64,000 bases of DNA, taken from the sequence record MK295203. The stretch is one strand, 5' to 3'. The first letter of the stretch is position 1. Each line of letters starts with the position of its first letter. The DNA comes from Escherichia phage vB_EcoM_005. Positions 680-27,170 of this stretch are shown one piece after another. The notes under the pieces were generated by a model. That model did not search any database, had not been told where the DNA came from, and worked only from the letters and a program-made list of their open reading frames with translations. A program made the position numbers and the translations under genes.

Positions 680-1339
680 ATGAATTATTTAATTTACAAA
701 ATAACCAATCTCATTAATAACAAGATTTATGTTGGAGCCCATGCCACTACAGATGTTAACGATTCTTATATGGGTTCTGGGGTTAACATAGTAAAATCCA
801 TAAAGAAGCACGGTTTAGAGAATTTTAAAAAGGAAATCCTTTTCAATTTCGAAACACCTGAAGAGATGTATGCTAAGGAAGCCGAACTAGTTGATGAGGC
901 TTTTGTCATGAGAACAGATACTTATAATGCTGCCTTAGGCGGTAAGGGTAATCCTGTTATAGTAGCTTTACAGGAACCCGGGTATCGTGAGATGTTATCC
1001 GAAAAGACCAAGGCCGGTATGACCAAGGAAGTAAGGGCCAAAATGTCTAAATCGAAAACAGGTTCTAAAGAATCCAAAGAGCACCGAGAAAACAAATCTA
1101 TAGCTAATAAAAAGTTTTACGAGAATAGGGATTCTCATCTTAAAGGTAGGAAACTATCAGAAGAACATAAAGCCAAAATTAGAAAGAATTCTAATAAAGG
1201 TAAGAAATTCGTATTTGTGGATATTTCTATTAAAGGTCATGAATTTAGCCATTACGATTACGCTGCCGAATTCTTTAACGTATCCGCAAAAACTATAAGA
1301 AATTGGATTAATGAACGCGATGATTGTTTTAAGCTATAG
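680..1339 (+). CDS. GIY-YIG homing endonuclease (seg-like)
   Basis: YLIYKITNLINNKIYVGAH and YMGSG motifs near N-terminus, basic repeats and HTH-like C-terminus; sits between genes 23 and 24 where T4 has segD. Confidence 0.8.
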   Translation: MNYLIYKITNLINNKIYVGAHATTDVNDSYMGSGVNIVKSIKKHGLENFKKEILFNFETPEEMYAKEAELVDEAFVMRTDTYNAALGGKGNPVIVALQEPGYREMLSEKTKAGMTKEVRAKMSKSKTGSKESKEHRENKSIANKKFYENRDSHLKGRKLSEEHKAKIRKNSNKGKKFVFVDISIKGHEFSHYDYAAEFFNVSAKTIRNWINERDDCFKL

Positions 1340-6557: not shown

Positions 6558-7139
6558 TCATTCATTTTCATGTTTGTGATAACGTGTTATAGCCGAACGA
6601 GTTGATTCAACACCACAGATAGGGCAAATCATCCTTGGCTGATTAATCTTTTTGCCTTTAGCCGGATGTTCTTTACCAAACATCGGATTACCTTCACCAG
6701 ACATAGCTTTGGCTTGGTCTGGTCGCTTACGTCCTTTTAGAGCTTTAGAATGTTCAGGCCTCTTTTTACCTAACCTACAATCTCTTTGTAGCTGTTTGGC
6801 ATGTTCACTCATTGGAATCCCTTTACGAGACATTCCAAAGAACCCGTCAGGCTGAGCTAATGACATATTTATATAGTTTTTAGATTTAACTACATTATAC
6901 TTTATTTGAAGCTCTTTCTCAGCTATACGAGCTTCTTTATCGGTTTCAAATAAAGATAAAATTCTGGTTTTGAAAAGGTGCGGATTTTCTTTACGTTCTA
7001 GATTCCAAATCTTTTTATATGCTTGGGATAATACAGAACCATTATATCCTTCTTTGAGAATCCTTTCAACGTATGTTGAGCCAATATAACGACGGGGTAG
7101 TTTAGACCCCGTGTATATGGTTAAGTAAGTACAATACAT
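6558..7139 (-). CDS. GIY-YIG homing endonuclease with C-terminal zinc finger
   Basis: TIYTGSKLPRRYIGSTY N-terminal motifs, repeated basic H-x-AK segments, C-terminal CPICG...H; free-standing between genes 20 and 19. Confidence 0.7.
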   Translation of the reverse strand: MYCTYLTIYTGSKLPRRYIGSTYVERILKEGYNGSVLSQAYKKIWNLERKENPHLFKTRILSLFETDKEARIAEKELQIKYNVVKSKNYINMSLAQPDGFFGMSRKGIPMSEHAKQLQRDCRLGKKRPEHSKALKGRKRPDQAKAMSGEGNPMFGKEHPAKGKKINQPRMICPICGVESTRSAITRYHKHENE

Positions 7140-7701: not shown

Positions 7702-8385
7702 TTAGTGTTTCCTATCATATTCTTCAATTAAATGGAATAGCATATCTAAATCTATACTATTTTTAGAATCTTTACTTCGATTCTTTTCCCAAGGAATCAT
7801 TTCTAGATTGCAAATGTGTCCTATTATTTCGGGAGGGACGCCATTTTCAAATCCATATTTGATAGATACCCTATGGTCTAATTGATAAGCTCCTTTAACA
7901 CCACATATCCCGCTTAGATGTCTATTTGGTAGATTATCAACTTCTTCTTTAAAAGTCTTATTAGTAAAAGACCTCACTGAATAATAATATTTATTACGTT
8001 CAGATTTGTTAGGATTCCATCTTCCGTTTTTAGGTCCTGAACAAGCTTCAATCTTTATACCTTTTTTAGACTTAGAAATTTTAGGCCCTTTGGTTTTACG
8101 GATTTTTATGCCTTCATCAGAATTCCAATATTCTTTTCTTGTTTCTGAATAGACTTCCCAACGATGCTCTTTACAGAACTTAGAATTGGTTTCATTAAGT
8201 CGCCCTTTTGTTACAGTATAATAAATGCCACATTTATCACATTTACACGTAACAGCCATTTTTCCAGGACAGTCTTCTAATTTTATTAAATGGGAGCTTC
8301 CACTTTTAACTTGATATCCAAGATTTTTAAAAGCAGAAACATTGCGATTCGTTATAGGTATTTCAAATAGAGTATTAGTAATCAT
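7702..8385 (-). CDS. HNH homing endonuclease (mob-like)
   Basis: C-terminal YQLDHRVSIKYGFENG...HICNLEMIPWEKNRSKD HNH motif, cysteine-rich N-terminus; inserted between genes 19 and 18. Confidence 0.7.
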   Translation of the reverse strand: MITNTLFEIPITNRNVSAFKNLGYQVKSGSSHLIKLEDCPGKMAVTCKCDKCGIYYTVTKGRLNETNSKFCKEHRWEVYSETRKEYWNSDEGIKIRKTKGPKISKSKKGIKIEACSGPKNGRWNPNKSERNKYYYSVRSFTNKTFKEEVDNLPNRHLSGICGVKGAYQLDHRVSIKYGFENGVPPEIIGHICNLEMIPWEKNRSKDSKNSIDLDMLFHLIEEYDRKH

Positions 8386-12745: not shown

Positions 12746-13608
12746 GGGTTTCTCCTTGGTGCTGGAGGCGCTGGCTCGACAGGCACTGGAATATCTTGTG
12801 AATATGTTTGAACGGAACTTCCATCCCATTCTGTTTGTTCTACACCTCTCGGAACCACTTCGCTATCAACCGATTCGAAATTACCTTCAGGAGCGAGTTC
12901 CTTTGAGTTAGCAAAGAAATCAAGATAAATGGTTTTAATTTCGCCTTCCATTTCTTTAACTGGAGGATATAACCACCCGTTAACCTCAAACATCATGGAC
13001 CATTCTAAACGACGACGAGAAGTGGTATCGCCTTCTAATTGTTCGTCCATTGCAATAGACTGGAACACAATACGAATATCACGGTCAAATTTAATCTCGT
13101 TTGTATAGAGTTCAGTGATTGTTGTATTAAAGTGAGGTTGGAAATAAGGCATAATCTGTTCCACAATTTGGAACATATCATCTTGGGTTCTAGTGTAAAT
13201 ACCCAGTTCGAAAATCATTTTAACCGGAGTAGGAGAATATTGGCTAACCCGTTTACGAGGGTCACCATTCTCAAATTGAATTTGTGTTCTGTTCTGAAGA
13301 GCTGTTTTGTATTGTGAGTTATAAAGCATATCAACCATTTGAAGGTTCATACGTGGAAGAACTGTTTCCACTTTAGCCTTTTGTTCAGCTCGTTCTTTAG
13401 GAGACGTATTGGGATTTGGAATATTCTGTACTGCCGTCCATTTGCCCAAATTTGCCATAAATCTTTCTTTAGAAGCATACGTGATAGGAACCTTAATAAA
13501 TTTAAGCCCTGTATCTTCTCTTTGACGTGCTACTTGAACATGGGAAAATAAATCACCCATCAAAACAATATAGCGACGTAGCGAACTATTATAAAAGTGA
13601 CCGAACAT
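12742..13608 (-). CDS. 15: tail sheath stabilizer/terminator protein gp15
   Basis: [13 protein letters not shown]...VPITYASKE... matches T4 gp15 N-terminus as recalled; 288 aa. Confidence 0.85.
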
Positions 13609-14195
13609 TACTCACCTCTCATTTTACAATTATCATTATGCCAACGATTTATAAGATGGTATCCTATCATCTTGTGGCAATGTGGACACTCTACTTTTCT
13701 CTTTGGTACACCTGTTTGGGCTTGTCCAAAGGATACGGTATGTTCTGCTGAAAGCTTTTTGCCTTTGTGGGTTTCACTGGCTCTCTTTTTAGCATACTCT
13801 CCGTGATGTTTACCAAAAAATGGATTCAATTCACCTATACGAGTTTTACCCCAGGCTGATTTAACCCTCTTCATTTCTATACGGGCTTCTTCGTATTTTA
13901 TTTTTAATTCTTCTTCGGATAAATTTAAATTTCTACGTTCAGAACTACTAAACATAATCCAAAAGGCTAAAATCATTTTAGGGTCTTTTGTTTTTGCTAA
14001 GATTGCATGCGCCTCTAGATGGTCTAAAACATCTATAGAAACTATATTTTCCGGCGTGTTTTCGTATTCTGGAAATAAAGACCTAGGGAGAATATGATGT
14101 TTTTCGGTGTATTCTGTTTTAGGTGGCTTGGAGACCACCGCCAGATATTCATCTGTCAAATCCCCAAGCCATAATCCTACTTTTTCTTCTATCAT
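13608..14195 (-). CDS. HNH homing endonuclease
   Basis: HHILPRSLFPEYENTPENIVSIDVLDHLEAH HNH motif and C-terminal CPHCH...C zinc finger; inserted between genes 15 and 14. Confidence 0.7.
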   Translation of the reverse strand: MIEEKVGLWLGDLTDEYLAVVSKPPKTEYTEKHHILPRSLFPEYENTPENIVSIDVLDHLEAHAILAKTKDPKMILAFWIMFSSSERRNLNLSEEELKIKYEEARIEMKRVKSAWGKTRIGELNPFFGKHHGEYAKKRASETHKGKKLSAEHTVSFGQAQTGVPKRKVECPHCHKMIGYHLINRWHNDNCKMRGE

Positions 14196-14204
14196 AGAAG
14201 TTAT

Positions 14205-14908
14205 TTAATCATCTAAAAAAGCATCATCAAATGCTGTAGGAGGAGCATCTTCTCCTCGTCCATTAATTACAACATAAGGATGTACGAATTCAGCCGCTTC
14301 GGCATTAATCTCATTGACCTCTTCGTATTGAATGTCGGAGATATCAGCCAACCCGTCGATATTCTTAACAGGCATTAAATCAAGCTCACTGAATTCAGGA
14401 ATATTAATACCTTCATTTCTCTGTAATTCAGGACGAAGTTCTTCACCATTGTAAATGAACTTGGTAGCGGTAATTCGACGCTGGACGTTAGCACCTACTT
14501 GATAGAATGGGTCGTAAGGTTGTACCCAGTTAATTTCGAATAGGCTTATTATCCATTGGGAAATAAATCAAGTCGCCTGAAACAGGTTCAGTGCCATTGC
14601 ATTGATGTTTAAAAAGGTTAGGGTTAATTGTGATTGTTACTTCATCATTAACCATCATACCGAACTTACTGAAAGCCTATTCGGTCATTGGCATTTAACA
14701 TATTCACGTGGTATATAATAAAGCTCAATACCACGCATTTGAATAGACTCAGCAACTAAAGCATCAGCCAATGTTTGGGTATTCTCATGCTTGTAATGGT
14801 CGCCATTGGGTCATTGACAAAGGGATTGAGAATTTCGGCTTCGTTCGTATTAGCGTAACCTGTATTATTTTCTAGTTTGGCGAAAAGACTAGAATCAAAT
14901 GTCGACAT
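14205..14908 (-). CDS. 14: neck protein gp14 (multiple frameshifts; not translatable as one ORF)
   Basis: gp14-like segments lie in three frames: [23 protein letters not shown]..., [64 protein letters not shown]...; span of 704 nt is not a multiple of 3. Confidence 0.7.
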
Positions 14909-15521
14909 AACTCCACTCCTTCCATTTAGGTTTATCATTCTTTATTCTATTAATAACTGCGCTTTTGACTATACCAAAATACTCGGCGCATTCTTTACCT
15001 GTCGAGAATACCATTTCTCCGACTCTAACTGCTCTGGCCGCAGGATTTTTACTACCGGTAAAATCTGGGTGTTTCACACGCGTCCACATTAATGCGGTAG
15101 ATTCTTTTCTACGCTTTAGCCCTTCTTCAGTCCATTCTCTTGATTTTGCCGCCTCTGACATTCTTTTTCTTGATTCTATAGAACGGGTTTTACCTATATT
15201 AGGGTTATCTTTAGGATTGTAATAAGAAGGACCACCTTGTCCTCCTTTTACCAAATTAACACACTGAGCAAAATCTTCTTTAAGAATATCGACTAAAAGT
15301 TCTTCGGCTTCCTTTAATAATTCCGGATTACCGAAATCTTTCGACCATAATACCTGTTTTATACAGTTTCGTCCATATTTTTTCTTAGCATTCGAAATAT
15401 ACGTTCCTGAGCCAACGTATGAATCCAGCTTTGGATTAGATTTATCCGAATGTCTTTTACCGCCATAAATTTTTAATCCGTCCGACGTTTCAAACTCAGT
15501 CACGTATAATCTATAAAACAT
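14895..15521 (-). CDS. GIY-YIG homing endonuclease inserted between genes 13 and 14
   Basis: [10 protein letters not shown]...YVGSG motifs, C-terminal HTH; 3' end overlaps gene 14 start; ORF track fuses it to an upstream gene-14 fragment (14895..15668). Confidence 0.75.
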
Positions 15522-15568
15522 AATTATCCAATTAAAATAGGTGTTGGTGGGTCGAGTAAATCTAATTC
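15519..15568. repeat. 50-bp direct repeat, copy 1 (copy of gene 13 3' end)
   Basis: Identical 50-mer CATAATTATCCAATTAAAATAGGTGTTGGTGGGTCGAGTAAATCTAATTC also at 15666-15715. Confidence 0.85.
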
Positions 15569-15572
15569 GAAA

Positions 15573-15668
15573 GTTGACGAAAGGGTTCATTATTTCAGTT
15601 TCGTTCGTGTTAGCATAGCCAGTATTATCTTCTAGCTTAGCGAATAAACTCGAATCGAAAGTAGCCAT
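15573..15668 (-). other. duplicated, diverged 5' fragment of gene 14 (32 codons)
   Basis: [32 protein letters not shown], about 78% nt identical to the real gene 14 start at 14908; reads in frame into the HEG. Confidence 0.6.
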
Positions 15669-15715
15669 AATTATCCAATTAAAATAGGTGTTGGTGGGTC
15701 GAGTAAATCTAATTC
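15666..15715. repeat. 50-bp direct repeat, copy 2 (3' end of gene 13)
   Basis: Identical to 15519-15568; encodes gp13 C-terminus ...[14 protein letters not shown]. Confidence 0.85.
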
Positions 15716-16839
15716 CTCGCGAAGTCGTTCTTTTTCTAAACGAGCTTCTTCAATCAATCGAATAGCCATCTACAGTGGTTCCACCTGCAAGTTGCATGCC
15801 TTGGTGTTTGGCTAAAATATTACCATTGACCTCTTTAACCAGTGCCGTAGCATAATCTTTAACCCAACGGTTATTATATGCACCAGTCTTGAAGACCAAG
15901 GTCCTCACCTACACGCATACCAGAAATACGACGTGATGGATTATCCCAAACAGCTCCAGGGCTCCATTCATTTTCGTCACACCCACCAGAGGCATATCCA
16001 TATCCTGCAGTATTTCCTACCATAGAATCAACCCCATTAAAAGAGCGAGTATAAACTTCAATTACAATAAAATCACCTTTAACAAAGTTACCCATTACCT
16101 TCAACTGTTCAGTGGCATCGTTATACCAATAATCAGGCAACAAAATATTACCATTGACTTCTTTAACCAATGCCGTCGCATAATCTTTGACCCAACGGTT
16201 ATTATATGAACCATCTTGCAAACCAAGGTCTTCACCTGCCCTCATACCTGAAATACGACGAGCCGGGTTATCCCAAATAGCTCCGGGGCTCCATTCATTT
16301 TCGTCACACCCACCAGAGGCATATCCATATCCTGCAGTATTTCCTACCATAGAATCAACCCCATTAAAAGTGGAACCAAAAGGTCTTGCATCATAGAACG
16401 ATATTGCATTAATTGTGTAAAATAACCAAGGTCGGCACCGAAGGCATTAGGCCCAAAGCTGTTACAAGAAGGTTCCAAGACCACCATTAATACCGGCCAA
16501 GCCTAATACAAAATCAGTAAACCATGGATAAGTCGCTTGGCCATCCATAGATGTTAAAGAACCCACGTTGGTTCTCAAAATTTGTGTTACCGCAAATATA
16601 TTACGGCCTTTAAGGTCAAATACACCGTTACGGAATTTTTCTTCGTCATCATGGCCTATATAAAAAGCCTGATAACCTTTGTTATAGCCGTTATAATGAT
16701 ACTCACCGTAGAGCTCCAGTGCGCGCTGGATGCAATCGTATACTTGGTCTGTAGTTACTTCAATATTTGTAATCGGTGCACCCAGGCGGCGCAGGATTGC
16801 GTCCTTGAGTTGCTTAGGGTTATATGATTCACTTGCCAT
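15671..16839 (-). CDS. 13: neck protein gp13 (frameshifts and internal tandem duplication)
   Basis: [23 protein letters not shown]... matches T4 gp13; frame breaks near 16465 and 15760; 1169-nt span is not a multiple of 3. Confidence 0.75.
15814..16043. repeat. tandem duplication inside gene 13, copy A (about 230 bp)
   Basis: About 90% identical to 16142-16370; both encode [43 protein letters not shown]. Confidence 0.8.
16142..16370. repeat. tandem duplication inside gene 13, copy B
   Basis: See copy A; separated from it by a 98-bp unique segment encoding [19 protein letters not shown]... Confidence 0.8.
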
Positions 16840-19116: not shown

Positions 19117-20445
19117 TTATTCTACTTTAATAATAAAAAGAACGGACATTGTCCATGGACGTGTTTCATTGGCAATAAGACCTTCACTATTAAGTGTGGT
19201 ATAGGTAGCGGTATTACCGAAGGCACCAGCATTATCATGTTCACCAAAACCACCAGCATGTTTATGATAACGTAATGCTTGGGCTTGAACGGAAGATTGT
19301 GGGAAAGAACCAACACCATTACCTAAACGGGCTTTACCTTTACCGTCTTCTCCTCGGTTACCGGCAATATGCGGGTTAACTTCGCCTTCAGAATATCCAC
19401 CGACCATGTTAGCGCCACGAGGATATAATCCACGGAAATCTGGAATAGCACCCCACCATCCCCGACAAATAGTACCTACAGGGACGCTATCTGATAATTG
19501 GTCGTGGGTAACAACATCAACACCATTACGACGTAATGCGCCATTAACGTTTAAAGTACCCCATATTTCACCACCTGAAGTAGAAATAACGTTGGCATTA
19601 TAAGCCAGTGCCGTATTACCATCACCTTGGCCCACAGTAGTAGATAATCGAACCAATCCAATACGACCAGTATTACCTGTACGAGCTAACAAAGAAGCAG
19701 GTGTAACAGCGGCAGTGTGGTCAGTACCATTAGATACCATATCCCAACCCGCGAGTTTAATAATACCGCTTCGTTCTTCGGTGGATGTTAATGTGGCTAA
19801 TCCTGCAGGAGAAATAGCGATACCTACAGAAAGATTTCCATTACCAACTTCGGCATTAGTCGCTAAACGAACCAAACCTTCATTTGTAGTCGTTGCCGTA
19901 GAATAAACCGGTAACGCTGCTGTCGCTGCACCAATTGCTTGCGATACTTTAAGTGGGGTCATTGCGGTGGTATCATCGGTACCAGCTAATGCAGCAGGTG
20001 TAGTTGAAATCTTGATAACGCCTGTGGCGTTCTCTGTTGATAAACGGTTCTCAAATGTATAATCCATTACCGCTTTCAAAGAGGTTGCTACGATTGCAGC
20101 CTGGGGCTCTGTGCCTGCTATGGCTTCAGCGTTAGTAGCGTAACGAGTGATACCTACATAAGTTTCTGTTGCCTGAGTAGGAATATCTAAACGGGCTTTT
20201 AAAGTTGCTGGAGTCACTGCACTATAAGCGTCCAATCCGTCCATTACTTCTTGTGTGGTGGCAAGACGAATAATACCTTGGGATGTTTCTGTGGCTGAAG
20301 GAACATTACCTGTGACGCCGATTAATGAAATAGTTGCCAATGCTTCTTGAACATTAGTAATATCAGGCGGGAAATTCGACCCAGTAGGGTCGAATGATTT
20401 GAATTCCGATTTATCACTAATGTGTTTTAGTGTGTTTGTTGACAT
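19117..20445 (-). CDS. 12: short tail fiber protein gp12
   Basis: ...FDPTGSNFPPDITNVQ...MTPLK...YHKHAGGFGEHDNAGAFGNT...NETRPW...IIKVE matches T4 gp12 hallmarks; 442 aa. Confidence 0.85.
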   Translation of the reverse strand: MSTNTLKHISDKSEFKSFDPTGSNFPPDITNVQEALATISLIGVTGNVPSATETSQGIIRLATTQEVMDGLDAYSAVTPATLKARLDIPTQATETYVGITRYATNAEAIAGTEPQAAIVATSLKAVMDYTFENRLSTENATGVIKISTTPAALAGTDDTTAMTPLKVSQAIGAATAALPVYSTATTTNEGLVRLATNAEVGNGNLSVGIAISPAGLATLTSTEERSGIIKLAGWDMVSNGTDHTAAVTPASLLARTGNTGRIGLVRLSTTVGQGDGNTALAYNANVISTSGGEIWGTLNVNGALRRNGVDVVTHDQLSDSVPVGTICRGWWGAIPDFRGLYPRGANMVGGYSEGEVNPHIAGNRGEDGKGKARLGNGVGSFPQSSVQAQALRYHKHAGGFGEHDNAGAFGNTATYTTLNSEGLIANETRPWTMSVLFIIKVE

Positions 20446-21004
20446 TAATATAATCTCTTATAGTAATATAAAGGAATCGTGCCGTTAACTGTACCACCTG
20501 CTAACGATTGGGTAGAGTTACCTAAGTATTCCCACTTACCGTATCCAGCCCTTGGCTGTTGGACTATAGTATGGGAAATTGTACAACCCGGGCAATAGCG
20601 TCTAAAAACACATCATTTACTTTAGATGCAACCAATACAGATGAATCGCCAACTAAGACCTCTACAGGAAGTCCAAACACTTTAATAATAACCGGGTCGC
20701 CAAGTTCACCGCCCGAAGAAATAGAACCGGTAAATGTAATTTTATCAGATTGCTGAATAAATCCAGGTGCTCTGTTTTCTGTGGTAATAATAACAGAGTT
20801 CACAGGAAGCTCTGCTCTAAATGCAATATCATCTATTGCACTTTGAACCGTAGGAAAATAAACACCCTTCTGGGTTTGGTTTGCAGAAGGACCACCGATA
20901 GGTCGTTGGTCAGCGACAGCAGTAGGCTTGTCACTAGTGTAAGATAATTCCAAATAATCGGCTAAGCGGGATTTTAACCCGCTTTTCATTTCAGTTAAAG
21001 TCAT
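20445..21004 (-). CDS. 11: baseplate wedge protein gp11 (frame broken near 3' end)
   Basis: 146-aa ORF (20564..21004) plus C-terminal 33 codons (...GYGKWEYLGNSTQSLAGG...YYYKRLY) in another frame ending at gene 12 ATG. Confidence 0.75.
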
Positions 21005-22716
21005 TATGCAATCCTCAGATAAGCCGGTCCTTGTGAATCAGGGTCAACTAAACATCCACCTACAAAAATAGGGCCATCGTTATCAGCAATAAGGACTTTA
21101 TCATCGGTATTAAGTTCAGGGATATTCTCATATTTCAAATTAGCCACATGAGCACCACCGGTACCACCAGCAGTTGACTGTGGAATACCAGAAGAATCCA
21201 GATCGTTATTATTTGCATTAAACAAAGAAGCCGCGTCAGGAGACCAACCTACCAAGAACACATCAGATAAACGCTTCCATGAACCAAAGCCCATATAAGT
21301 TTTAGGGTTATTAGGGTTCACCGTGTTCTCGTAGATAGTTCCTATAGGGTAGATTAAATCAAAAAATGTTGCTGCTGTGTCTATTGTAATATTAGACGAG
21401 GCGACCGGCTCAACGTTAGGTGCAAAAGGATTATCTACATCAGTAATACGAACCTGGCCTGTTATATCAATCGATGGACCCTTAGAAATATAGATGTTGT
21501 TGGTATAATCCAAAATCTCATCAATTTCCATGGTGGTACCGATATCATTATTGTACCAAATTACTGTAAGAATATCGCCATGTTCAAAGTTACGTCCAAA
21601 TTCGATGGATTCAATCTTGTCTTCAGGAGTCAAATTAAAAATATAGTCTGATTTAGATTGAGTCCATTGACCACCGGCATTAAAACACTCGGTAGCAGTA
21701 CGACCATCAGCACCTTCACAATAAAACGAAGGAAGTCCAGCTGTACCTGCTTGATGAAGTAATGTGCTATTAAGCATAACTTGACAAGCATTTGGGTTGA
21801 TAGGGCTGTTAACAGAAATATTCAAATCAGCGGCTGATATAACATGCGAAGTATTCAAATCTCCGACGAAAGAAGAACCAGGAACAGAAACGTTTTTAGT
21901 CAATTCTGAACTTTGGATTGTTATATCACGGCGGTTATAAGAACTACGCCATTGAGCAAGCCCGTCATTATATGATTTGATAATAACAGTATCACCCGCT
22001 TCACAAGGATATTTTAAACGGATGTCTTTACCATTCAAGGCCACCAATTCACCTGGTTGAGCACCTGGAGAACCAAACTCTGCGGTAGCAGCATCAAAAA
22101 TATCATCAATACCGTAGAACAAATTGTTACCACGTTGTGAAACGCTTAAACTTGCTACGTTATAAGAAAGACCCGGGAAAACATCTAGAAAGTCTGTTTG
22201 ACCTTCAGTGGCAATAAACTGCTTAGTTGCTACAGTAGCAAGGTCGTTATTTGGAATACGGTTTACTTGCTTATTTTCAACATATTCCCAACGTCCTGGA
22301 GCACAATAAACTAATTCAAGGTCAGAGAAGTTGCGAGCAATTTCTACTTGAGTAGCTGAACCCTTAATGGTATCACCTGTGGCAGGGATTAGGGTTACAG
22401 GGTTAGCTTGCCATGAGGAATACACGTCACGTACACGGATAACAAAGTTATATTCTTCAGGGGAGCCTTTAGGAAGCTGAACGTTAATACGCCCACCTTG
22501 AGTATTAAGGGTATAGCTATGACCCATTACAGCGTTCAACAAAGCGCCATCTGCGGTAGAATGCTGTTTCCAAGCGCCTGCGGCATGTGGGTTGTTGCCA
22601 TCACCTAATTGGTAATAAAGCTCATTGAAGTTGTTATTAATTTTAAGACCACCTGCACGCAGGTAATCACCGGACCCGTCATCAACAGCGGAACCTACTT
22701 TTAAGTCTTGTTTCAT
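21004..22716 (-). CDS. 10: baseplate wedge protein gp10
   Basis: MKQDLKVGSAVDDGSGDYLRAGGLKINNNF...DLELVYCAPGRWEYV...NPNNPKTYMGFGSWK matches T4 gp10; 570 aa versus about 602. Confidence 0.9.
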   Translation of the reverse strand: MKQDLKVGSAVDDGSGDYLRAGGLKINNNFNELYYQLGDGNNPHAAGAWKQHSTADGALLNAVMGHSYTLNTQGGRINVQLPKGSPEEYNFVIRVRDVYSSWQANPVTLIPATGDTIKGSATQVEIARNFSDLELVYCAPGRWEYVENKQVNRIPNNDLATVATKQFIATEGQTDFLDVFPGLSYNVASLSVSQRGNNLFYGIDDIFDAATAEFGSPGAQPGELVALNGKDIRLKYPCEAGDTVIIKSYNDGLAQWRSSYNRRDITIQSSELTKNVSVPGSSFVGDLNTSHVISAADLNISVNSPINPNACQVMLNSTLLHQAGTAGLPSFYCEGADGRTATECFNAGGQWTQSKSDYIFNLTPEDKIESIEFGRNFEHGDILTVIWYNNDIGTTMEIDEILDYTNNIYISKGPSIDITGQVRITDVDNPFAPNVEPVASSNITIDTAATFFDLIYPIGTIYENTVNPNNPKTYMGFGSWKRLSDVFLVGWSPDAASLFNANNNDLDSSGIPQSTAGGTGGAHVANLKYENIPELNTDDKVLIADNDGPIFVGGCLVDPDSQGPAYLRIA

Positions 22717-24445: not shown

Positions 24446-24503
24446 TAATTTTTACCTGAGGGGCAAAGGTCACAGCACTTTGGTCAAACAAAATGCGCAT
24501 AGA

Positions 24504-27170
24504 CTAATCGGCAGGAATATCAAACGGTTCTCCTGCTTTAGGTCCAACGTTGTACATTGGAGCACCTGTACGAGGGTCTCGTTCTATATTACCATCAAAA
24601 CCTATTACAGCAACTCTATCATACCATTCAGATGGCAAACCTGAGTCCCATTTATAGTTCTTAAGGATATTAATAATAGTTTCTGTATGTTTTAGCGTTA
24701 AACCAACGTTAACAAACATAGAAAGCAAAGTTATACCTACAAAGCCGAAACCTACTGGATGAACAAATCTCAAAACATCTTTGCGATAACGAGAGGTAGG
24801 GAGATTAGACTTAATAGTCATCACATAATAAGAACGGTTACGGTTGATATAGTCGATATTGTTACTCAAAAGCTCTTTACCACGTACACCCTGAACAATC
24901 ATACCCTTGAACGAAGTACGTTCAGATTTAATTTCCTGTCCGACTATAAAACGACCTAAAAGGTTATGAATGGTTAAACGCCATTGCAGTTTACCATCTT
25001 TGTAATTTCGTTCTATATAAGTAACATTACTACGACCCGTAGGAGTATAAATCGTTTGGCCTACGATATCTTCACTGATATTGTCGGATTCTACGATGAT
25101 ATCATATTCGATAGAGTTCTTGGACTCGATATCAATTTCGACATCTTCGTTGTAAAGCAATTTAAACAGGAACTTATAAGAAGCTTCGGTACCTTTTGTA
25201 GACCAAAAATCGCTTTGGCGTGCCTGGAAAAAACGAACAACTTCATCGCGTTTTTCCTTTGACAAATAGATATTACGCTTATAGATTTCCGACCACAAAT
25301 ATTCCCATGAATCTTCTTCACGCGGATATTGGTTACGAATAAGATTCAACAAATTATTATAGTGCGTACCTGAGCCATCACTAATAAATTGGAGATAGTA
25401 TTCACAGAATTTTTCAAAGTTGGTATCTTGAAGCAAATAACTATCTGGAATCATTTTAACCAGTAAAGGTTGGAGGTCTGGGTCCTGCTCACCAACTTCC
25501 TCTTTAGGCTTCCATGGGATTTCATGTTCTTGGTTTTGCAATTCTGCCGTAAACATAATTTCTTTAGGCTTCCAAATAACACGGACTTCATCACGCACAC
25601 GATAGTCAAATTCAAAATATCCAACCAATTCACCCGTAGATTTGTGAATCATCATTCCGGAAGAATATTTCTTAAAGCCGTTAAATTCTATATTAGGAGA
25701 CGTGACTTTACAAAAACCTTTATTCCAAATCTCGTGAACAATACGTTCAGGTGAAGAACCACTGTTCAGGTCGATAATTTTCTGATATAAAGCATCATTA
25801 TAAACAACCATCGCATGGTCGCCGGTAGTAATCCATGAACGGGTTCCATCACGACGGGACCAACTAAAGAATGGTTCGGCATAATAAGCCATACGTCCAG
25901 GTTTAAATTCTTTGAAATCAGATTTAGAGTTAGACCTAAAACTCATCATCAAATAATGTTTATCATGAATCCATTGTTCATCTTTAACATATTTAACGGC
26001 TGAAGTGACAATTTCAGGATATTCCAAAGGAAGTTCAGAATCAACCTCTACTTCATATCTAAAGTTGCTCGAACTGAAAAATAATTCCTCTCCATCGGTA
26101 GACATGCTGGTATATCCATGCTCTATACGACGACGTTCTTCTTCAGTGTTTCCAAATACACGAGTCCATGTATCGGCTGAAGTGTCTAACCAATAAACAC
26201 CTTTAGATTCGGAATCAACCACATTGGATTCGACTGTAGGGTCCATTTTTTCTTCTTTAACTTCACCTGTAATTAAAGCAAATGTATGGCCTTGGATAGA
26301 ATCTAATTTATAACAAACAGCTTTAGGGTTCCCTGTGATAGTTGAATATCCGCTTTCAAATATCTTCTCTCCATAAGTCGGAGAACTAGGGTCGGTGTCT
26401 ATAGGGGCTTCAGATGTTTTTGCTTTATAAACTCTGTCTCTACCAGCAACATAAATGAATTCATCAGATGCGCACATGGCCTCGGCAATAGTAGAAATAG
26501 GTAAAGGAAGCTTTGCATATGAACCAAATATTTCGATTTCAAATGGAAGGTCGATATCGCTACCTATTTTAGCAAAAGTTACATCCTGGGAACTAAATCT
26601 AACGTCATCAGCAGACCAACGAATATCACTTGATTTACGTCCGTAAAATATTTGGTCATAACCTAGAACATAAGTGGTCGTGTCGGTTTGGTAATGTACC
26701 GTACGTGAAACAGGGTTACCTACTCGGTCATTAAACAAACGGATATAATGCCAGTTCTGCCCTTTATCATTAGAAACCTTAGCGGTGCTTTGGAATCTTT
26801 CTAAAAGGTAAAGTACACCGCCAAGTTCCATTAAAATAGAACGTTTAGGGTCTTTACAAACTGCTTGGATGCTTCCTTGGATTTCATGGAAACGGTCTGC
26901 TTTTAAAACATAATTTGATATAGATGACAAATGCGAATATGCAGGGGTAAAGTTAAAATCTTCACTCATCAAAGAAGCCATAATGGCGTCAGTATTAAAG
27001 TTCACATAATTCTGATTATTTTTTGTGAATTTTTCTTCAATAAATTTATTAGACAAAGTGAATTCGCGCATATGCTCAAATGTATATGCGTTGGTAGAGA
27101 AAGTTTCAAATTCTTCAGTGTAAACCCATTCAGACTGCTCAAACCCCTGGGCAGCTACCGCAACTCTCAT
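24504..27170 (-). CDS. 7: baseplate wedge protein gp7 (start missing, C-terminus frameshifted)
   Basis: Longest ATG-initiated ORF; gp7 homology continues upstream to about 27284 (...LGYTPNNEWF...) with no start codon; C-terminal ...FAPQVKIND lies in another frame at 24443-24500. Confidence 0.85.
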   Translation of the reverse strand: MRVAVAAQGFEQSEWVYTEEFETFSTNAYTFEHMREFTLSNKFIEEKFTKNNQNYVNFNTDAIMASLMSEDFNFTPAYSHLSSISNYVLKADRFHEIQGSIQAVCKDPKRSILMELGGVLYLLERFQSTAKVSNDKGQNWHYIRLFNDRVGNPVSRTVHYQTDTTTYVLGYDQIFYGRKSSDIRWSADDVRFSSQDVTFAKIGSDIDLPFEIEIFGSYAKLPLPISTIAEAMCASDEFIYVAGRDRVYKAKTSEAPIDTDPSSPTYGEKIFESGYSTITGNPKAVCYKLDSIQGHTFALITGEVKEEKMDPTVESNVVDSESKGVYWLDTSADTWTRVFGNTEEERRRIEHGYTSMSTDGEELFFSSSNFRYEVEVDSELPLEYPEIVTSAVKYVKDEQWIHDKHYLMMSFRSNSKSDFKEFKPGRMAYYAEPFFSWSRRDGTRSWITTGDHAMVVYNDALYQKIIDLNSGSSPERIVHEIWNKGFCKVTSPNIEFNGFKKYSSGMMIHKSTGELVGYFEFDYRVRDEVRVIWKPKEIMFTAELQNQEHEIPWKPKEEVGEQDPDLQPLLVKMIPDSYLLQDTNFEKFCEYYLQFISDGSGTHYNNLLNLIRNQYPREEDSWEYLWSEIYKRNIYLSKEKRDEVVRFFQARQSDFWSTKGTEASYKFLFKLLYNEDVEIDIESKNSIEYDIIVESDNISEDIVGQTIYTPTGRSNVTYIERNYKDGKLQWRLTIHNLLGRFIVGQEIKSERTSFKGMIVQGVRGKELLSNNIDYINRNRSYYVMTIKSNLPTSRYRKDVLRFVHPVGFGFVGITLLSMFVNVGLTLKHTETIINILKNYKWDSGLPSEWYDRVAVIGFDGNIERDPRTGAPMYNVGPKAGEPFDIPAD

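Follow-up and report, generated by a model that had tools for sequence, protein, structure and literature searches.

Gene 11 is essential in phage T4, where its product gp11 (PDB 1EL6; Pfam family PF08677) is encoded between gp10 and gp12. The same gene is represented in the genus Dhakavirus by the gp11 baseplate wedge/tail pin proteins of WG01 (AND75834.1) and JS98 (AAU29285.1), and the intact gp11 of a relative of the phage studied here aligns to T4 gp11 chain 1el6_A (residues 1-205, E = 3e-27) as well as to 9f4b. Intact gp11 of WG01 matches PF08677 with 73.8 bits across profile positions 2-250, the cutoff of the family being 27 bits. T4-type phages also have promoter-early stem-loop (PeSL) cassettes; deletion mediated by these elements requires two flanking cassettes of ~100 bp in intergenic, hyperplastic regions (Arbiol et al. 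2010, PMC2839356).

The window, i.e. the whole 64-kb stretch of DNA analysed here (Escherichia phage vB_EcoM_005, record MK295203), belongs to a JS98-like T4-type coliphage of the genus Dhakavirus, with 95-99 % identity to WG01, MX01, JS98 and others. The gp17 protein is 100 % identical to public copies, and the corresponding DNA differs from that of relatives by 31-45 nt changes, at most one of which lies outside codon position 3. Since nearly all changes affect third positions and leave the protein unchanged, the underlying genome has been under purifying selection, and on sequence comparison the point differences that separate the window from its relatives are natural. Look-ups of undamaged proteins (gp17 and those of ORFs 7702-8385 and 13608-14195) retrieved relatives only, at 91-98 % identity. 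Among public metagenome data, L012 (ENA scaffold GUOW18-1_..._scaffold_2574) has an apparent gap of its own in gp17 at positions 1501-1602, where it holds about 100 nt versus 625 in the window; its gp17 was called at 361 aa, which exemplifies how scaffold gaps cut genes short.

Gene 11 of the window occupies the expected place (span 20445-21004), the gene order gp10-gp11-gp12 matching that of every relative. In contrast to gp11 of WG01, JS98 and T4, however, residues ~138-173 are missing from the window copy, which also carries a frameshift. The gp11 ORF is located on the minus strand (21004..20564), starts with ATG at 21004 and comprises 146 codons ending in ...VNDVFLDAIARVVQFPIL, followed by TAG at 20566-20564; in the minus-strand reading its final residues are given as ...DAIARVVQFPIL. 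The conserved C-terminal block ...GCTISHTIVQQPRAGYGKWEYLGNSTQSLAGGTVNGTIPLYYYKRLY (47 codons) is found in the -1 (+2) frame, and its stop TAA at 20447-20445 shares bases with the gene 12 ATG (TAATG). No gp11 ORF of ~219-221 aa in one frame is present in the window as given. The 146-aa ORF matches PF08677 with 62 bits (residues 2-139), covering profile positions 2-153 of 252. The constituents of the locus are as follows.

20592..21004, minus strand: 5' part of gp11, codons 1-137 plus 2 nt, in native frame; aligns to relatives up to 20592
20591, minus strand: junction of the lesion located by alignment, a single base left over (minus-strand C, plus-strand G) where 107 nt are expected from relatives
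20564..20590, minus strand: out-of-frame read-through tail RVVQFPIL and TAG stop, product of the 106-nt net loss
20445..20590, minus strand: 3' part of gp11, last 47 codons and stop, in native frame, which is -1 with respect to the 5' part
21004-22716, minus strand: gp10, late structural gene of the baseplate cluster
19117-20445, minus strand: gp12, late structural gene; 442 aa versus 508-510 aa in relatives

Alignment with intact genes places the break at 20591, where one base (C in coding orientation) takes the place of 107 nt; the gene is thereby 106 nt shorter, equal to 35 1/3 codons. Fitting the model of L nt replaced by 1 nt to gp11 gave a best split with 28 of 28 flank matches at L = 107. 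The residues lost are NSYILAETAIDALDQSTLNIKYNDYQNHIFSPYKQS, about 35-36 codons (residues ~138-173), which would probably belong to the middle 'finger' domain of the T4 gp11 structure reported by Leiman et al. 2000. TAG at 20564 is merely the first stop met in the wrong frame, 25 nt past the junction, and the nucleotides of the read-through tail encode ..GCTISHTIV.. in the native frame of the intact genes. The change of frame is explained in full by the 106-nt loss. A direct repeat or microhomology was sought at the ends of the gp11 block and none was found, the junction being blunt with one non-templated base.

None of the 34 related phage records and no metagenome relative checked lacks the 107 nt. 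An 801-nt query around gene 11 spans 1006 nt in every one of these 34 records, and gp11 is intact in all of them (666 nt, 221 aa), including WG01, JS98 and MX01. Six further public contigs, selected by a gp17 protein identical to that of the window, likewise encode gp11 of 221 aa, together with gp10 of 603 aa and gp12 of 508-510 aa. Conversely, the gp11 junction was absent from the 34 phage records, from IMG/VR (searched with a junction 40-mer) and from metagenome contigs (junction 22-mer), and the shortened gp10, gp11 and gp12 proteins, looked up as exact matches, were not found in the public collections searched, including a gene-position index. Likewise, a 39-mer specific to the window had no match in IMG/VR or in the GTDB genome contigs, and an exact look-up of wac gave no hit, so that no lesion-free copy of this very genome was obtained. 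The retained gp11 (558 nt) differs from WG01 by 7 nt and 1 aa, and the ~145 nt downstream of the junction match WG01 completely. As the retained out-of-frame tail is the same as in WG01, no evolutionary time has elapsed since the lesion. Re-insertion of the 107 nt of WG01 in silico yielded an unbroken 221-aa gp11 ORF, 1 aa different from that of WG01.

The sequence-only reading of this locus had described gp11 as truncated by a stop at 20564 and its C-terminal block as lying in another frame that ends at the start of gene 12. Minus-strand reading and alignment to intact gp11 bear out both observations, and the alignment it had proposed as a check displays truncation, frameshift and internal loss alike. 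It had put the missing part at about 40 codons; the internal loss is real, the count by alignment being ~35 codons. A continuous gp11 of about 219 aa in corrected sequence, which it had named as contrary to its claim, was obtained in silico, at 221 aa, once the 107 nt had been re-inserted.

The gene 11 lesion does not stand alone. Compared with all relatives, the 64-kb window has about 30 stereotyped block losses, mostly of 100 nt replaced by 1 nt. Against MX01 over the full length, 28 block losses were counted, and in 20 of them the window is on balance exactly 99 nt shorter. Positions and net sizes agree with those obtained against WG01 (early region) and seven further loci (late region); as they recur against several relatives, the losses are specific to the window. 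The relatives retrieved with the undamaged proteins also possess the missing block wherever they span a lesion site. Late genes struck are gp5 (three times), gp6, the gp6/gp7 boundary, gp7, gp8, gp9, gp10, gp11, gp12 (twice), gp14, gp18, gp22 and gp23, while early genes struck include thioredoxin and vs. Reading frames are lost in gp23, gp11, gp14 and at the gp6/7 junction. Positions and selected consequences of the lesions are listed below.

Junctions, first half: 1527, 3005, 9414, 14675-14694, 16370, ~19205, 19464, 20591, 21018, 23299, 23985, ~24460-24505, 27276, 27472
Junctions, second half: ~30240, 31005, 31230, 43521, 45143, 47049, 51928, 54139, 55754, ~55875, 56614, 59012, ~60543, 61884, 62453
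1527, minus strand: gp23 (major capsid) lesion, 134 nt to 1 nt, with frameshift; ORF of 462 aa versus 519
9414, minus strand: gp18 (tail sheath) lesion, 148 nt to 1 nt; 611 aa versus 660
19464..19466, minus strand: gp12 lesion, 100 nt to 1 nt; a second gp12 lesion lies near 19205
21018, minus strand: gp10 lesion, 100 nt to 1 nt; 570 aa versus 603 in relatives
gp9 ORF: 253 aa in the window versus 286 in relatives
gp8 ORF: 301 aa in the window versus 334 in relatives
gp22 ORF: 238 aa in the window versus 271 in relatives

Applied to the 25 cleanly resolved events, the model of L nt replaced by 1 nt gave L = 100 in 18, the other sizes being 103, 107 (gp11), 124, 134, 148 and 174. Like that in gp11, the sister junctions are mostly blunt, with one leftover base and without microhomology. 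Of the 16 block lesions in which this base is unambiguous, 15 have A or C on the minus strand (T or G on the plus strand). Lesion positions are consistent with a uniform distribution (KS p = 0.45). A common motif, odd composition or regular spacing was not detected among the lost blocks examined, their GC content being normal, and none of the blocks reappears at another place in the window, which is free of N.

Damage of other kinds was observed as well. In gp14 (14675-14694), ~105 nt are swapped for 20 unrelated nt, and gp7 has two shorter losses near 24460-24505. Isolated 1-nt insertions occur at 14547, 15765, 15886, 16472, 37510, 53589 and 53756; all seven of these coding-region insertions consist of a minus-strand A or C, and they include the ones that break gp13 (carrying three) and gp14. 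Moreover, a 230-nt segment of gp13 (16142-16370) duplicates 15814-16043 with 91.7 % identity. The upstream copy is 98 % identical to MX01 and to locus L008 and the in-place copy 94 %; the duplicate has the look of a chimera in which two strains were joined, or else of a further artefact.

With a probability of about 0.93, comparison with the relatives favours a natural Dhakavirus genome whose record was damaged non-biologically, the break in gene 11 being one such lesion rather than a real feature. A non-biological process would have swapped each of about 30 internal blocks, usually of exactly 100 nt, for a single base; to this add several single-base insertions, the replacement of ~105 nt by 20 nt and the divergent duplicate of 230 nt. 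The truncation and frameshift of gene 11 reflect the 107-nt-to-1-nt lesion at 20591. It is the membership of this lesion among ~30 stereotyped block losses that identifies it as a sequence artefact. No mutational process is known that would thirty times excise exactly 100 nt and leave one base behind. Furthermore, a genome with a frameshifted gp23 and ~15 other damaged essential late genes is unable to propagate. The phage itself almost certainly carries an intact gp11 of 221 aa.

We infer a technical cause of the lesions, candidates being deliberate corruption or the collapse of masked or gap stretches while the sequence was assembled or the data were prepared. Artefacts from collapsed gaps or masked stretches (e.g. 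runs of 100 N later removed) share with the window the 100-nt blocks, the blunt junctions, the random placement irrespective of what the genes do and the absence of decay. They differ in that the window is without N, that a single G or T (plus strand) is left and that some blocks measure 103-174 nt. Because what is missing measures exactly 100 nt, complete sequence rather than true assembly gaps would have been masked, which suggests that 100-nt stretches of complete sequence were masked or dropped and then collapsed to one character. Overlapping 100-nt masks account loosely for the tail of 103-174 nt, since by our own estimate ~1.8 overlaps are expected versus ~6 seen.

Any shortened or frameshifted gene in this window should accordingly be suspected of the same damage and compared with the lesion coordinates before a biological reading is attempted. 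Suspect genes are gp5, gp6, gp7, gp8, gp9, gp10, gp12, gp13, gp14, gp18, gp22, gp23, thioredoxin, vs and the start of lysozyme e. The break in gene 11 is without biological importance, its value being that of a warning for other findings in the window.

A genuine 106-nt deletion in gene 11, carried by a defective genome in the lysate or by a laboratory or natural mutant, is very improbable. It would cut gp11 in its middle domain, and the particles would fail to mount short tail fibres. The size of the lesion, 107 nt rather than the modal 100, is formally open to another kind of event and could make it independent of the other lesions. The gp11 lesion nevertheless has the signature of its sisters (blunt, one leftover C, no microhomology), and the complete match of the downstream ~145 nt to WG01 speaks for the absence of decay. 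Nor was the deletion found in any public sequence searched. The same genome would moreover need to tolerate broken gp23, gp14, gp13 and gp6/7 in addition to shortened gp5-gp12, gp18 and gp22, and gene 11 is itself essential according to established T4 genetics. Junction microhomology and a genome compatible with propagation, as expected of illegitimate recombination, were both absent. Spontaneous deletions as such are familiar in T4-type phages (Mosig 1998, cited in PMC2839356). A mixed case, in which one real deletion among the artefacts left a JS98-like gp11 without ~36 middle-domain residues and with its C-terminus recoded or dispensed with, is highly improbable.

Hardly any credence can be given to a deletion by a mobile promoter cassette of the PeSL type, i.e. 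recombination at a cassette-like site within gene 11. The window does hold a repeated early-promoter-like core, TGATACTATAGACC, which is present in eight copies with 0-1 mismatch, all on the plus strand; 10 matches were counted at ≤2 mismatches versus 0.5 expected.

372, 35449, 36017, 38924, 44494, 50774, 54496 and 58579, plus strand (early-gene strand): copies of the TGATACTATAGACC core

These repeats are probably part of early-promoter or PeSL-like cassettes, which they resemble in their repeated core and their location on the early-gene strand, but the core has no part in the gene 11 lesion. The sequence-only reading had taken CATACTATAGTCC for the junction sequence and had likened it to this core. 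The true junction, at 20591, precedes the stop by 25 nt; CATACTATAGTCC lies apart from this junction, at a distance of 25 nt. CATACTATAGTCC has three mismatches to TGATACTATAGACC, a degree of similarity for which ~5.6 chance matches per window are expected, and is found on the strand opposite to all eight clear cassette copies. It proved to be ordinary gp11 coding DNA, present verbatim in the intact gp11 of WG01, JS98 and one metagenome contig, where it codes for S-H-T-I-V. The ends of the lost block are likewise plain gp11 coding sequence without repeat, and in the genes of intact relatives no cassettes flank the deleted gp11 segment at intergenic sites. A link between cassette and lesion was thereby ruled out by alignment with intact genes. 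Overall, the sequence-only reading is partly supported as judged from the alignments: its description was right, whereas the biology it implied is not backed.

Recoding, by which a shorter gp11 would be produced via a programmed -1 frameshift or a bypass as in T4 gene 60, is next to inconceivable despite an undamaged C-terminal block in the -1 frame and a 0-frame stop (CTA TAG) superficially like a take-off site: the split is absent from the relatives, all of which have a single 221-aa frame; the 27-nt overlap (GCC CGG GTT GTA CAA TTT CCC ATA CTA TAG) is devoid of an X XXY YYZ slippery heptamer, as verified by direct reading of 20564-20593, and of a landing codon matching in the right register; any product would still be without 36 conserved residues; and the 106-nt loss alone suffices for the change of frame.

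Apart from the lesions that mark the record as damaged, the window harbours genes of variable occurrence. Four free-standing homing-endonuclease genes were recognized by matches to PHROG 314/655, GIY-YIG and an I-TevI-like DNA-binding domain.

14895-15668, minus strand: homing-endonuclease gene
13608-14195, minus strand: homing-endonuclease gene
6558-7139, minus strand: homing-endonuclease gene
680-1339, plus strand: homing-endonuclease gene

Their insertion sites in the late cluster are gp13/gp14, gp14/gp15, gp19/gp20 and gp23/gp24. The presence of these genes varies between relatives, and the insertions appear natural. The homing endonuclease at gp13/gp14 starts with a duplicated gp14 5' end, and a 50-nt exact repeat (15519-15568, 15666-15715) brackets 97 nt of gp14-like sequence. 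Repeats of the TGATACTATAGACC type, in turn, cross-match in MX01. Between gp18 and gp19, an ORF on the minus strand (7702-8385) codes for a protein of 227 aa assigned to PHROG 5104; it is missing in MX01, and the same protein is encoded in several metagenome contigs.
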